In this document: positions 1,776-45,490 of the stretch, piece by piece
How positions within the stretch are numbered: position 1 is the first letter of the stretch
Layout of the letters: each line of letters starts with the position of its first letter
Sequence record: MZ311864.1
DNA from: Escherichia phage vB_EcoM_LNA4
Length of the DNA: 64,000 nucleotides
Reading direction: 5' to 3' (one strand)
Program-made: the position numbers and the translations under genes
The notes under the pieces: model-generated
Seen by the model: the letters and a program-made list of their open reading frames with translations, nothing else
Database searches by the model: none
What the model was told of the DNA's origin: nothing

Positions 1776-2040
1776 AGATATAAATGTTCTCTTCGTTTTC
1801 TACCCTGGCAGCAACAATACCTTCGTACATCGTCCTCCCGCAGACCAGTATGTCGTCGAAGTAGTTCCCGGTGGCTATGTGAACTGTGTCTTCCCAGTGA
1901 TCGAAACGCACGACATCATAGGCCTCACCAACACGGAAGAGTTCTGAATCTGCACGAATGCACAAGGCTTTCCCCATAGGATAGGTTCTTTGGAGAAGGT
2001 CTCTTGTCAATATACCTATATCGGTGATGCTACGATTCAT
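1720..2040 (-). CDS. hypothetical protein
   Basis: 106-aa ORF; start overlaps preceding gene. Confidence 0.4.
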   Translation of the reverse strand: MNRSITDIGILTRDLLQRTYPMGKALCIRADSELFRVGEAYDVVRFDHWEDTVHIATGNYFDDILVCGRTMYEGIVAARVENEENIYIFELCERRQKRESKSNTAE

Positions 2041-2237
2041 TTCATTATCTCCGGCGGTTGAATATGTTTCGACACGTCTTTCCCGCAGTTATCGCAGAGG
2101 AAACGTTTACCTCCAGAGATAACCTTGTTATCAGATGTCCCATATGGAACACCGTTGAAGTCTACCGTCAGGTCGTACCTCTCAGTGATGACAGTCGTTG
2201 CGGAGTCACACCCACAGTAAGGGCAGGAATCAATCAT
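2037..2237 (-). CDS. zinc-ribbon protein
   Basis: 66 aa with CPYCGC and CDNCG pairs. Confidence 0.4.
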   Translation of the reverse strand: MIDSCPYCGCDSATTVITERYDLTVDFNGVPYGTSDNKVISGGKRFLCDNCGKDVSKHIQPPEIMK

Positions 2238-6275: not shown

Positions 6276-6485
6276 TCATCCAACACCCCTTACCTGTATT
6301 GTTTTTGCAACATGGAGCAATGTGTCGATAACAAGATTGTACTTACCCCTAGAAACAGAGTTTTTCGGTTCCTTGTCCCTTAAAAATCGGCAGGTATCTA
6401 TCTGGCTAATGATCTCTTCCATGATCTCTTTTCTCTCAAGCATCTTGCCTAATTCCTCTCTTGCATCACCGTACTCATCGGACAT
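6276..6485 (-). CDS. hypothetical protein
   Basis: 69-aa ORF with AAGGAG RBS. Confidence 0.3.
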   Translation of the reverse strand: MSDEYGDAREELGKMLERKEIMEEIISQIDTCRFLRDKEPKNSVSRGKYNLVIDTLLHVAKTIQVRGVG

Positions 6486-7623
6486 TCTTTTCTCCTTTTG
6501 CTACCTTCAGCATGTGGATTGTGTTCTCCAGGTCTTTCTTCGGCTTACTGTACAGCTTACGACCGTGTTTTGCAAGGAACTTCTCCAGATAGTCCAGTGC
6601 TTTGAATTCAACAATTTCGTTGATAACCTCTGGCACGTTGAACTCTTCCTTCAGCATCTGGTATGCTGCCTTTTTCACCGTAATTGGTGTGCGGCCTTGG
6701 CTGATTGCCATTTCAGTAACCAATCGCTTACGGCTATCAGACCAGTTAGCATTGATAGGGAATGCCTTATATCCGTTTTGCTCCTGGAAAATCTTCACTG
6801 CACGTTCTTGCAGGGTGTCTTTGTCATAACCACGACAATAGTAGCTCGACTCATCCTGATGGTCGAAGTGCTCCAGGTCGTCGTAGTCGCCAACACCGAG
6901 GTCTGCCAGTAACAGAACATCGTCCGACTGAGACAGAAGGCGGGTAGCATTCCAGCGTACCTCAAAATCACTCGCCTGGTTGCGATCACGGTCGAGTGTG
7001 AACACCTCAGCAGGGAAATCGTAGTCGAACTTATACTTACCCTTAACCGTGGTAACGTACAGCCCATTCACATATAGGCGGCAGTCATTGTTGTTCTTTT
7101 TGGCATAAGCCTTACCAAAGCAACGGTCTTCGACGACAATCTCAAGATCTGTACGGGCTGGCGCGTAATTCTTTTTAACAAGATTCATTGCAGAATCAGG
7201 AACGCCGCTGATCGTGATCGTTACACGGTCTTCATCGCGACTTAAAAACTGGTTTTCGATGATATTGATAGACAAAACCTTCTCATCAAAAAGGTCGTCC
7301 ATCTCGAACTGTGGTTTCCACAGGTCTTTCCCGTTTTTCACCGTGATATCAGCGCCTTCACGCAACAGGCACAGGAAGCCCACCTTCATCCCCTCACCGA
7401 ACTTACCGATCTTGGTGTCGTCATCCTCTTTGGTGGTTTTACCCATAAGAAGGGACTGGATAGGCATCTTGCCACCGCAGGAAGAAATGGTGATCGAGTC
7501 ATTGTCGAACAGCACAGTATGATCACCTGCGTCAATGGCGTTTTGAATAAGCTCACGGATGCCTTCCCACCATGACCAATGGGCTACATATGTTGGGGCA
7601 ATGCTTAACTTGATACTTTTCAT
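6475..7623 (-). CDS. GHKL-type ATPase domain protein
   Basis: N-terminal Bergerat-fold motif ELIQNAIDA and G-rich box GKFGEGMKVGF; start set at MKSIKL with AAGGAGA RBS. Confidence 0.55.
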   Translation of the reverse strand: MKSIKLSIAPTYVAHWSWWEGIRELIQNAIDAGDHTVLFDNDSITISSCGGKMPIQSLLMGKTTKEDDDTKIGKFGEGMKVGFLCLLREGADITVKNGKDLWKPQFEMDDLFDEKVLSINIIENQFLSRDEDRVTITISGVPDSAMNLVKKNYAPARTDLEIVVEDRCFGKAYAKKNNNDCRLYVNGLYVTTVKGKYKFDYDFPAEVFTLDRDRNQASDFEVRWNATRLLSQSDDVLLLADLGVGDYDDLEHFDHQDESSYYCRGYDKDTLQERAVKIFQEQNGYKAFPINANWSDSRKRLVTEMAISQGRTPITVKKAAYQMLKEEFNVPEVINEIVEFKALDYLEKFLAKHGRKLYSKPKKDLENTIHMLKVAKGEKNVR

Positions 7624-7742
7624 AGTTTCTCCTTGAAACGTTTTATGTCCAAGCATTATTACACAAAGAAAACAGATGTCAACCATTGACTAAGGGTTTT
7701 TATCCTGATAATCTTACCAGACACATACAGAGGAGACATAAA

Positions 7743-7991
7743 ATGTCCGAACAAGTTCTTGAACAAGATAAGTACAAAATTTACGAAGTCGTCCTTGTAG
7801 ACGGTCAGTTCGAAGCGACTATCCGTGACATCTTCACCAGGACTATTCGTGTGGAAGGAAAGAATGGTGAAGAAGACACCTTCGTTACCCACGTATCCTA
7901 CCGTATGCACGAGAAGGAGTGGTGGTACGAAGAAATCCTGCCGCATCGTGTGCAGAAACTCAATGGAAAAATCAACTTTGGAGCTAAATAA
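7743..7991 (+). CDS. hypothetical protein
   Basis: Plus-strand ORF MSEQVLEQDKYKIYEV... inside minus-strand region, GAGGAGA RBS. Confidence 0.45.
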   Translation: MSEQVLEQDKYKIYEVVLVDGQFEATIRDIFTRTIRVEGKNGEEDTFVTHVSYRMHEKEWWYEEILPHRVQKLNGKINFGAK

Positions 7992-8302
7992 TGGATTTAC
8001 TGGAAGATAAAGGCGGTCGTCCGGACCGCAATGAAATTGATCCTCGTGTCGGGCCTGGTAAGGTGTGTATCATCTACGGTTTCGACCCGAAAAACCCCAA
8101 CACTGGGCCTCTCAATGGGTTACAGTGCATGGTACATGAAAAGGTTATCCGTAGCGGAAATATCTTCTTCCCTTTTGGGGAGACATGGTATGCCTGCACC
8201 GTATATGGCCTGAAGGGTATCACAAATCTCCGTGCTGATCACCTGATGGTGACCGATGACTCCGATGTCCTTATTATTGAGAAAATGAGGGCTGATAAAT
8301 AA
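7991..8302 (+). CDS. hypothetical protein
   Basis: 103 aa, TAATG overlap with preceding plus-strand gene. Confidence 0.45.
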   Translation: MDLLEDKGGRPDRNEIDPRVGPGKVCIIYGFDPKNPNTGPLNGLQCMVHEKVIRSGNIFFPFGETWYACTVYGLKGITNLRADHLMVTDDSDVLIIEKMRADK

Positions 8303-8330
8303 AAGAAAACCCGCCTTTCGGCGGGTTATG
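8301..8330. terminator. bidirectional terminator between convergent genes
   Basis: AACCCGCC-TTTC-GGCGGGTT hairpin with A-run upstream and T-rich downstream. Confidence 0.55.
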
Positions 8331-8829
8331 CTATTAATACAATCACTTTTTCTTTGTTCGCTGCGGTATACTCTTCAACAAACATTCCTGACATGACCCT
8401 TTCAATGATCCTTCCTGGAGATCTTCCAAGCCCCTTCATCACTTCATCAAGTTCAGGACCTTTAGCCATCCTTAGCATTTCAATCTCTTCTTTGGTTGGG
8501 GAAGATGGGTCAATAAACATATCCCTATTGTATATCTCCTCTAAGGAACCTGACCCAATATATACCTTGTCCGGATATATCCAGATCACTTCACCGTTTA
8601 AGGTGTGGACTACGAATATCTCCTCATTACTCGCCACACTCTTTTGCACTATGAACCTGGAGAAACTGATCCCCGCTTTGTCAACATTGTGCCTACTCTT
8701 TAATACAAAGGCAATCTTCCACTCGACCCCTGCCTTCACTTTAGCAACAGCGCTGGAAATACCCGGTAGTTTGCTGATTGTCTCGTGGTTGGTGTCTTTC
8801 ACAAAGAGTTTAATCATCTCTTCTTGCAT
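8326..8829 (-). CDS. hypothetical protein
   Basis: 167-aa ORF. Confidence 0.45.
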   Translation of the reverse strand: MQEEMIKLFVKDTNHETISKLPGISSAVAKVKAGVEWKIAFVLKSRHNVDKAGISFSRFIVQKSVASNEEIFVVHTLNGEVIWIYPDKVYIGSGSLEEIYNRDMFIDPSSPTKEEIEMLRMAKGPELDEVMKGLGRSPGRIIERVMSGMFVEEYTAANKEKVIVLIA

Positions 8830-9215
8830 ACGGTCTCCATATCCTTAATCCATTGAAAGCGATCAGTGTAGATCATTTTGTTCTTCTTGCTGCGATTTAG
8901 TTTTGCAGGGATAACCTGGATATTATCACCACAGTTGAGGCCTGAGACAACCTTTGCACGGAGGGGCAGCATGTGGTCTGACTCCCAAGGGATGCCAGTT
9001 TCACGCATCCTCGCGTCACAAAGGTCAGTGGCCTCTTCTCGAACAAAATCATCCCACTCTCCAACAATAGTCGCTCGCTTCTCCGCTTCGATACGGGCAA
9101 GCCGGATCTGCAACTGACGTGCTTTACCCTCAGGGGTTGCACGGCGCTCACGGTCTATTTGCCGTCTACGTGCGGCATATTGTTTGTAGTAATCTCCTCT
9201 GTCCCTCATAGACAA
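8814..9215 (-). CDS. HNH-family nuclease
   Basis: C-terminal SDHMLPL...NCGDNIQVIPAKLNRSKKNK resembles HNH motif; basic N-terminus. Confidence 0.45.
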   Translation of the reverse strand: MSMRDRGDYYKQYAARRRQIDRERRATPEGKARQLQIRLARIEAEKRATIVGEWDDFVREEATDLCDARMRETGIPWESDHMLPLRAKVVSGLNCGDNIQVIPAKLNRSKKNKMIYTDRFQWIKDMETVCKKR

Positions 9216-43735: not shown

Positions 43736-44080
43736 TCAGAGCGTTATACGAATCTCACTGAGATCCACCACACAATTATTACTCTCGATATGTTCCACTG
43801 TCAAGTCCTTATACCACACAACAGTGACATTTCTTCGTCTTAGACGACTACGTAATGACGTGAGGTAGTCTCCGAACACTTCCTGTTCAGACTTACCATC
43901 TGGTAAAACTACACACACATTTTGTTCTCTCATTGATTCATGAAACACATCACGAATCAACATGAGTCTTGACTTCTCCTCGTCAGTCTGTTCAGCTTTA
44001 CGACGAGGTTTACCACTCACAGTCTTCGACTGACCACACACCATATCACCAATATCTTTTGTTTGTTTACTTGACAACAT
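43736..44080 (-). CDS. hypothetical protein (first gene of leftward unit)
   Basis: Start at MLSSKQ with AAGGAGA RBS. Confidence 0.4.
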   Translation of the reverse strand: MLSSKQTKDIGDMVCGQSKTVSGKPRRKAEQTDEEKSRLMLIRDVFHESMREQNVCVVLPDGKSEQEVFGDYLTSLRSRLRRRNVTVVWYKDLTVEHIESNNCVVDLSEIRITL

Positions 44081-44149
44081 TACAATCTCCTTTAACAATA
44101 CGAGCATTCTACATGAACAAAATCTGAAGTCAACCCCTTGACAGCACAT

Positions 44150-44358
44150 TCCTGTTCATTCATACTGCGGTTCATCAAGTGAACGACTCTTTGATAGTAG
44201 AACATATAGATCATGCTAAAAGATCTTGTTTTTAGATCTTATGTTTTATTGTTTTTATAAAAGAGTATTGTTTTATTTATTTTATATAGTATTTATTTCT
44301 GTTATCAATTTGAGACTAGGCTTAGTGTCAATTTGAGACTAAGCTATGGAGGAGAGAC
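44150..44358. promoter_or_regulatory. AT-rich divergent control region with direct repeats and palindrome
   Basis: Strand switch; palindrome AAGATCTTGTTTTTAGATCTT; two copies of TCAATTTGAGACTA(G/A)GCT 23 bp apart just upstream of first plus-strand gene. Confidence 0.55.
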
Positions 44359-44676
44359 ATGGGGTACATCGCGTCAGGTAAGCACATCTACGGTAACTTC
44401 GAACTGAAGTTGCTGTCGGTGACCTGCGCCTCGTCCAACGACAAGATTGTGTACCTCTACATGCGTCATCAGTATCACTACTTCAAGTCTCTCCGGAAAA
44501 CGTACCATGAGTCGCTTGACAGTATTGCTGATGCCACAGGATTATCGAGGGCAACTGTTGCCAGGTGTGTGAGCAACCTTGAAAAGATAAAGTGGTTGAC
44601 AAAGGACACAACACGCACCAATATGGGCCACAACAAAACGATTTACGAAATTCACAATTGGACAGAGGAGAAATAA
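44359..44676 (+). CDS. helix-turn-helix DNA-binding protein
   Basis: SIADATGLSRATVARCVSNLE HTH segment; GGAGGA RBS. Confidence 0.5.
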   Translation: MGYIASGKHIYGNFELKLLSVTCASSNDKIVYLYMRHQYHYFKSLRKTYHESLDSIADATGLSRATVARCVSNLEKIKWLTKDTTRTNMGHNKTIYEIHNWTEEK

Positions 44677-44677
44677 A

Positions 44678-45490
44678 ATGAGTATTGAATTACGTTTGAA
44701 CAAACTGGTTGTTCCTGTAGACCACTTCACCTTTAAGGGTGGTGAGGAACAGGTCAAAATTGACCTAAAACACGCACCAAAAGGCGGTATTGGTTTCGTA
44801 GATATCACTGCCAAAATCAAAAATTCAACTGATGTCATGGCACTGGCTATGTTGGTGGATGCGTGTTCCCGTTTGGAAGGATTGCATAACCACGCAGAGT
44901 TCACCCTGCACCTTCCATACATCCCGTATGCACGTCAAGACCGTGTAATGAACCCAGGTGAAGCGTTATCTATTAAGGTTTTCGCAAACATTGTCAACTC
45001 GCTTGGTTTCGACACGGTTATCGTTGATGACCCGCACAGCGATGTCTCTGCTGCACTGCTCAATAACGTCCGTATCCGTGGTCAGGATGTTCTTATTTCC
45101 GAGATGAAAGATCTTGGCAACTCCACATTGCATAGCAACTCTTTGGTTGTGGTAGCACCTGATGCGGGTGCTCGCAAGAAAGCCCATAAGGTTGCTGACC
45201 GATTCAGTCTTCCTCTTGTTGAGGCTGGTAAAGTACGTGATTTGCAGACCAACGAAATCACTGGTACTGCGGTGTTCGGAGATGTTGAAGGTAAAGTGTG
45301 TATGATTGTTGATGATATCTGCGACGGTGGTCGTACATTCATCGCCCTTGCACAGGCCCTGAAAGAAAACGGTGCGAAACGTGTTATCCTGTACGTTACT
45401 CACGGTATCTTTTCTTTCGGTAAACAGGTCATCCTCGATGGTGGGGTTGATGAAATCTATGCGTATCATGACTGGACGGAGAATTTTTAA
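44678..45490 (+). CDS. prs: ribose-phosphate pyrophosphokinase-family protein (Prs-like)
   Basis: YARQDR, DDPHSD and PRPP-binding loop VDDICDGGRT motifs; 270 aa. Confidence 0.75.
   Translation: MSIELRLNKLVVPVDHFTFKGGEEQVKIDLKHAPKGGIGFVDITAKIKNSTDVMALAMLVDACSRLEGLHNHAEFTLHLPYIPYARQDRVMNPGEALSIKVFANIVNSLGFDTVIVDDPHSDVSAALLNNVRIRGQDVLISEMKDLGNSTLHSNSLVVVAPDAGARKKAHKVADRFSLPLVEAGKVRDLQTNEITGTAVFGDVEGKVCMIVDDICDGGRTFIALAQALKENGAKRVILYVTHGIFSFGKQVILDGGVDEIYAYHDWTENF

Follow-up and report, generated by a model that had tools for sequence, protein, structure and literature searches.

Two short plus-strand genes, gene 1 and gene 2, form a small island between positions 7743 and 8302 of the window, by which we mean the whole 64,000-nt stretch of DNA that was analysed (Table 1). 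An earlier note on this DNA had described two overlapping plus-strand genes with a good ribosome-binding site (RBS), and both open reading frames are indeed found, each with an RBS of its own. The 103 residues given there for gene 2 are right; the 83 given for gene 1 had counted the stop codon, and the protein has 82. The stop codon of gene 1 and the start codon of gene 2 share one base, in the sequence TAATG. The note had also described the pair as an interruption of a minus-strand block. Between about 3400 and 44150, essentially all genes lie on the minus strand, and here a crude ORF map, the annotations of relatives and the strand of the sigma-70-like sites agree with that description. No paralogues of the island genes were found elsewhere in the window.

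Table 1. The island and its immediate surroundings, with positions numbered along the window.
Feature	Positions	Strand	Description
Left, divergent neighbour	6475-7623	-	PHROG 6077; sacsin/HATPase_c_3-like ATP-binding protein
Leftward sigma-70-like promoter (putative)	7655-7682	-	TTGACA-16-AATAAT, with TG before; 11 of 12 consensus matches
Rightward promoter-like site	7686-7714	+	TTGACT-17-TAATCT with TG before, or TTGACT-15-GATAAT
RBS of gene 1	7730-7735	+	GAGGAG; 7 nt 5' of the gene 1 ATG
Gene 1	7743-7991	+	ATG at 7743, stop TAA at 7989-7991; 82 aa; PHROG 16965
RBS of gene 2	7980-7983	+	GGAG; 7 nt 5' of the gene 2 ATG, within the end of gene 1
Gene 2	7991-8302	+	ATG at 7991, stop at 8300-8302; 103 aa; PHROG 13562
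GC-rich hairpin	8308-8327	both	AACCCGCC-TTTC-GGCGGGTT; common to gene 2 and the 8326-8829 gene
Right, convergent neighbour	8326-8829	-	PHROG 19128; no assigned function; central part diverges along with gene 2

The record closest to the window is that of Enterobacter phage FENT2, with 83% nucleotide identity, followed by GAP31, EC152 and 4MG. All four belong to the Vequintavirinae, and three of them, FENT2, GAP31 and 4MG, are placed in Seunavirus. The window phage is a Seunavirus-like member of the Vequintavirinae. The annotation of GAP31 holds another plus-strand ORF in the minus block, GAP31_088 (L014:3181-3465), which corresponds to window positions 2038-2217 (+). Of its 94 residues, no more than 60 can be aligned to the window (82% identity), so that it may be an over-called ORF and not a second island.

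The left neighbour is listed as an ORF extending from 6475 to 7686. Since its PHROG match begins at residue 22 of this longer ORF, and since the ATG at 7623 has its own AAGGAG, position 7623 is most likely the start, which leaves a divergent intergenic region of 119 nt between this gene and gene 1. The N-terminus of its product matches NCBIfam P_loop_sacsin (E = 1e-6) and Pfam HATPase_c_3, in neither case reaching the curated cut-off. The gene has no counterpart in PVP-SE1, KB57, TH18 or the contigs L022 and L025, and it is therefore an accessory gene.

Promoter-like sites and the shared hairpin

The divergent intergenic region contains two sigma-70-like sites placed back to back. The leftward one would serve the following minus-strand unit, which opens with the gene starting at the ATG at 7623. 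The -35 box of the rightward one, TTGACT at 7686-7691, lies three bases from the leftward -35 box on the opposite strand, and the two boxes together make up the palindrome TGTCAAccaTTGAC. The rightward -10 element is weak or ambiguous; position 7686 is the only nearby plus-strand site with 10 of 12 consensus matches. In an alignment of the intergenic region from eight phages, the TGTCAA box that forms the left half of the palindrome is invariant, and the rightward -35/-10 pair is kept at a 17-nt spacing in PVP-SE1, FENT2, KB57 and Hena1. The rightward site aligns with an annotated promoter of PVP-SE1, TTGACT-17-TATGAT, and the GenBank record of that phage has divergent promoters and two rho-independent terminators annotated at exactly the same place. 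A 12-nt inverted repeat, ACGTTTTATGTC at 7638-7649 and GACATAAAATGT at 7735-7746, puts the same GACATAAAA(C/T)GT element in the 5' leaders of both divergent genes, an arrangement that may be due to chance.

Many sigma-70-like promoters have been described in this phage group in the rV5 genome paper (PMC3606486). When the whole window was scanned for sites matching the consensus in at least 10 of 12 positions, the sites were seen to track gene orientation, being mostly on the minus strand up to about 44150 and mostly on the plus strand beyond. The minus block holds only three plus-strand sites, one of which is that at 7686. It is from such consensus matches that we infer the promoters, the transcription start and the timing of expression at the island. 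At the strand switch itself, near 44150-44360, sites cluster on both strands (window positions of about 43775-44680; examples are 43804-43775 on the minus strand and 44071, 44138 and 44516 on the plus strand), and this cluster is probably the main divergent early control region.

At the far end of the island, 23 nt separate the stop codon of gene 2 from that of its convergent neighbour, and the hairpin fills this gap. It has a free energy of about -15 kcal/mol and a z of about -3.2 on both strands. It is conserved from genus to genus, and the changes seen in its stem in KB57 and TH18 are compensatory. In a consensus scan, the hairpin is called as a terminator on the minus strand alone, its tail there being UUUUCUUUUAUU / TTTTCTTTTATT; the plus-strand tail, AUGCUAUUAAU, is U-poor and has no U-tract. 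By its sequence, the hairpin is a canonical intrinsic terminator for the minus-strand gene. Given the U-poor plus-strand tail and the minus-only scan call, the bidirectional terminator of the earlier note is only half shown in the window. An Rfam scan of 7000-9000 gave sub-threshold matches only, all centred on the hairpin. With a rightward promoter-like site, two RBSs and an end hairpin, the pair looks like a transcription unit of its own, much as the note's claim of independent regulation had it.

The predicted proteins

Gene 1 matches PHROG 16965 with E = 7.2e-46 (residues 1-82 against 1-77 of the 77-position profile), and gene 2 matches PHROG 13562 with E = 4.5e-31 (residues 1-102 against 1-103 of the 104-position profile). 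Non-synonymous and synonymous changes were compared by Nei-Gojobori counts. In gene 1 the dN/dS ratio is 0.03-0.15, and in gene 2 it is 0.04 (GAP31 versus 4MG); for gene 2 of the window versus FENT2, pN is 0.074 and pS is saturated at 0.75. Since both genes match PHROG families, and since non-synonymous change is far below synonymous change, genes 1 and 2 are real genes and not chance ORFs. Judging by these substitution patterns, both are under purifying selection. Positive selection on gene 2 was considered and rejected because close pairs show strong purifying selection.

The AlphaFold model of the gene 1 product is a five-stranded SH3/Tudor-like β-barrel with a pLDDT of 86.5. That of the gene 2 product is a KOW/SH3-like barrel followed by a C-terminal helix, with a pLDDT of 74; its N-terminal tail is modelled at low confidence, yet it bears the most conserved motif of the family, GGRPDRNE-D. 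Both proteins are thus predicted to be generic SH3-like (KOW/Tudor-type) β-barrels. This is a fold class and not a family assignment, as hundreds of unrelated barrels score similarly. The resemblance to the KOW domains of NusG/Spt5 and to Tudor/chromo barrels comes with no Pfam KOW or Tudor match and with sequence identities of 9-14%. A profile-profile comparison of gene 1 with gene 2 revealed no relation between them.

Searches of Pfam (with the single proteins and with all aligned homologues), NCBIfam, PADLOC and PDB sequence profiles returned nothing significant; weak matches to L15e, DUF5641 and C1q were below significance and were set aside as noise. Neither protein matched a PADLOC defence HMM at E values up to 0.1, in a library that holds defence, not anti-defence, proteins. 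PDB sequence searches and BFVD fold searches led to uncharacterised proteins only. An exhaustive profile search with gene 2 among 1.8 billion proteins yielded only 14 cluster representatives, of which one, P0090, was discarded as a low-complexity repeat artefact. By this search, the gene 2 family is narrow and phage-restricted. A literature search found neither functional nor transcriptomic work on these genes or this clade.

Distribution and divergence among relatives

A gene 2 homologue is present as an opposite-strand gene, in the same slot and the same orientation, in all 13 contexts examined (the window, FENT2, GAP31, 4MG, PVP-SE1, KB57, Hena1, TH18, L011, L022, L024, L025 and L026). These contexts span Seunavirus, Mydovirus, Henunavirus, TH18-like phages and five metagenome or assembly contigs, that is, at least four genus-level groups; homologues known by name are PVP-SE1 gp173, KB57_164 (Mydovirus), Hena1 gp019 (Henunavirus) and TH18 peg153. 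The slot lies a few genes away from the genes for an RlaP-type nucleotidyltransferase and a virion protein. A tblastn search finds gene 2 in 66 phage records and the neighbouring nucleotidyltransferase, at 60% identity or more, in 67, figures that compare counts and are not matched record by record, some of the gene 2 records being partial genomes. In CR3 (Certrevirus) and W70, which have nucleotidyltransferases of about 52-53% identity, the annotation shows no gene on the opposite strand within 6 kb of the nucleotidyltransferase gene. It follows that the unit goes back to a single gain or loss at a deep branch of the subfamily and is fixed in one multi-genus branch. An IMG/VR scan returned only 7 loci, at least 5 of them apparently phage genomes already compared.

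Gene 1 has a more restricted distribution. It occurs in 40 records and in six of the 13 contexts (the window, FENT2, GAP31, 4MG, KB57 and L022), and it is absent from PVP-SE1, TH18, L011, L024, L025 and L026. Hena1 has an unrelated 190-aa gene where gene 1 would be. In a phage of another type, a homologue with 46% identity lies by itself within a long operon of same-strand genes. Distant homologues of this kind (L008:4001-4315) are 104 aa long, have an extra N-terminal extension and lack a gene 2 partner; near them lie DUF4326 and DUF7448 genes and the gene for a tail protein.

What lies between the promoter and gene 2 varies from phage to phage. This stretch holds gene 1 in the window, GAP31 and 4MG and is empty in PVP-SE1 and TH18. 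In FENT2 and KB57, the promoter and gene 1 are separated by a gene that is annotated as an endonuclease gene; its product has about 500 aa, with CapR and DUF723 domains. Since the content differs among relatives, the stretch is a variable slot, which gene 1 occupies in some of them. The endonuclease genes are at L001:4745-6235 (FENT2) and L005:1110-2750 (KB57), and the window has none. Over its first 65 or so nt (window 7743-7810), gene 1 has almost the same sequence in the window, FENT2 and KB57, but not in GAP31 or 4MG, and this patch looks like a co-conversion tract or the target site of a homing-type element.

The composition of the island is that of its surroundings. The GC content is 44.2% for gene 1, 47.4% for gene 2 and 46.2% for the window, and the third-position GC is 51% in both genes versus 48-56% in the neighbouring genes. 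The typical GC content gives no sign of a recent foreign origin, and a repeat search around the island found no flanking repeats that would mark an insertion.

Sequence similarity is uneven across the region. The nucleotide identity to GAP31 is 83-99% to the left of the island, 73-85% in gene 1, 48-64% in gene 2, 81% around the hairpin, 54-55% in the middle of the right-hand neighbour and 79-90% at 8800-8999. When positions 8000-8750 of the window are compared with GAP31 and 4MG together, two patches fall to 46-67%, one in gene 2 and one in the middle of the 8326-8829 gene; the hairpin region between the two divergent patches and the outer flanks stay at about 70-99%. On these alignments, the 8000-8750 segment is a local mosaic block with a conserved terminator. 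The protein of gene 2 is 87% identical to that of FENT2 and 45-50% identical to those of GAP31, 4MG, PVP-SE1 and KB57, and the neighbouring proteins are mostly 70-98% identical to those of GAP31 and 4MG. Between the window and GAP31, the gene 1 proteins are about 80% identical versus 46% for gene 2. Because gene 2 is under purifying selection, and because synonymous change is saturated even versus FENT2, its low identity is the result of old alleles exchanged by recombination.

These results bear on the main proposal of the earlier note, that the pair is a moron, a cassette independently acquired and regulated, of a kind that in phages often has host-interaction or defence/anti-defence functions. 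We regard a fairly recent moron with a defence or anti-defence function as unlikely, although it accounts for several observations. The pair has its own promoter-like site and end hairpin, no unit is annotated near the nucleotidyltransferase in CR3 or W70, gene 1 is patchy, and gene 2 exists in alleles (46-50% identical to GAP31, 4MG and PVP-SE1) that are deeply diverged amid more similar flanks, a frequent pattern of host-interaction genes. For gene 2, however, the presence/absence comparison recommended in the note ended in conservation in place, the outcome named there as refuting acquisition, and the fixed position and orientation in 13 of 13 contexts, the typical GC content, the lack of detectable flanking repeats, and the purifying rather than diversifying selection in close pairs all argue against an independently acquired cassette. 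The failure of PADLOC, Pfam, NCBIfam, PDB sequences and BFVD to give an informative match also speaks against a moron, but weakly, since PADLOC would not contain an anti-defence protein. What survives of the idea is an autonomous-looking unit with an accessory gene 1. Absence from close relatives in which the flanking genes are adjacent is seen for gene 1 alone, which is patchy (40 records versus 66) and occurs by itself elsewhere, and not for gene 2.

Interpretation and comparison with known systems

We propose that the island is an old, fixed, self-contained divergent unit of the branch of the Vequintavirinae that comprises Seunavirus, Mydovirus, Henunavirus and the TH18-like phages, and we hold this to be the probable reading, with room for doubt. 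Its arrangement and its conservation are seen directly in the genomes compared. The island lies at the junction of two successive leftward units. As for promoter use, timing and role, the sequence suggests the following. The hairpin at 8308-8327 would terminate the upstream leftward unit, and the near-consensus promoter at 7682-7655 would begin the next. The rightward promoter-like site would send the host RNA polymerase through genes 1 and 2 to the same hairpin. By the comparison of relatives, gene 2 is the lineage-core gene and the anchor of the unit, with gene 1 as an accessory, and the promoter-to-gene 2 stretch is a landing pad for extra genes. According to the models, both products are unrelated small SH3-like barrels without a catalytic signature and are most likely non-enzymatic binding proteins. 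They would modulate a host or phage macromolecule, probably while the host sigma-70 polymerase is still in use.

Divergently transcribed repressor genes provide the model for another reading, in which one of the products is a small DNA-binding regulator that acts on the TGTCAAccaTTGAC divergent promoter and controls both its own unit and the adjacent leftward one. The divergent arrangement beside a strong leftward promoter is conserved, and the back-to-back -35 region is palindromic with an invariant left half; but the palindrome is fully explained by two opposed -35 hexamers, and Pfam searches found no helix-turn-helix or ribbon-helix-helix signature. Moreover, the gene to the left of the promoter varies, PHROG 6077 being absent from the five relatives listed above, so that the regulator would have no constant target operon. 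We consider such a role improbable. An obligate pair, that is, a toxin-antitoxin-like module or a two-subunit complex, is suggested by the TAATG overlap, with its hint of translational coupling, and by the joint retention of the genes in the window, FENT2, GAP31, 4MG, KB57 and L022, but it is very improbable and already largely refuted by their separate occurrence (gene 2 alone in PVP-SE1, TH18, L011, L024, L025 and L026; gene 1 alone in L008-L010), and the two genes are not co-diverging (about 80% and 46% identity between the window and GAP31).

A more specific role can be imagined for gene 2, although we give it very little credence. Its product might be a mimic of the NusG/Spt5 KOW domain, with the GGRPDRNE-D tail and the barrel docking on a partner of the NusG KOW domain such as Rho, ribosomal protein S10 or RNA polymerase. 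If so, termination or transcription-translation coupling would be altered on the very long one-directional operons of the phage, which could explain why gene 2 is retained as a separately transcribed unit throughout the clade.

Under the divergent-unit reading that we prefer, an apparent acquired cassette is recast as a clade-wide divergent mini-unit in which a core gene, PHROG 13562, is joined by a promoter-proximal slot of variable content. The significance of this beyond annotation is small. Gene 2 does become a clean candidate for knock-out and pull-down work, being small, ubiquitous in the clade, to all appearances separately transcribed and represented by deeply diverged alleles. The promoter-to-gene 2 slot naturally tolerates insertions and could take cargo in therapeutic phages of Seunavirus or Mydovirus.

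The closest counterparts of the island are pairs that are already annotated, as hypothetical proteins, in relatives: GAP31_102/GAP31_103 of Cronobacter phage GAP31, 4MG gp177/gp178, FENT2 CDS0222/0221 and KB57_165/164. In each of them, the two PHROG families follow one another as they do in the window, with reading frames that abut or overlap, in the same opposite orientation and at the same position, a few genes away from the gene for the RlaP-type nucleotidyltransferase. Gene 2 of the window differs from theirs as a diverged allele (87% identity to FENT2, 45-50% to the others), and the FENT2 and KB57 pairs, unlike that of the window, have the endonuclease gene upstream of gene 1. PVP-SE1 gp173 resembles the window in having a gene 2 homologue (50% identical) in the same slot, back-to-back promoters and a shared hairpin, but it is a single-gene unit without gene 1.

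The morons of lambdoid phages are extra genes with their own promoter and terminator, found between genes that are adjacent in relatives. The island is moron-like in that it looks autonomous amid oppositely oriented genes and in that its promoter-proximal slot gains and loses genes. Since the phage is virulent, the logic of a benefit to the lysogen does not apply. Unlike morons, the island has an anchor gene that is fixed across a multi-genus clade and a composition typical of its phage.
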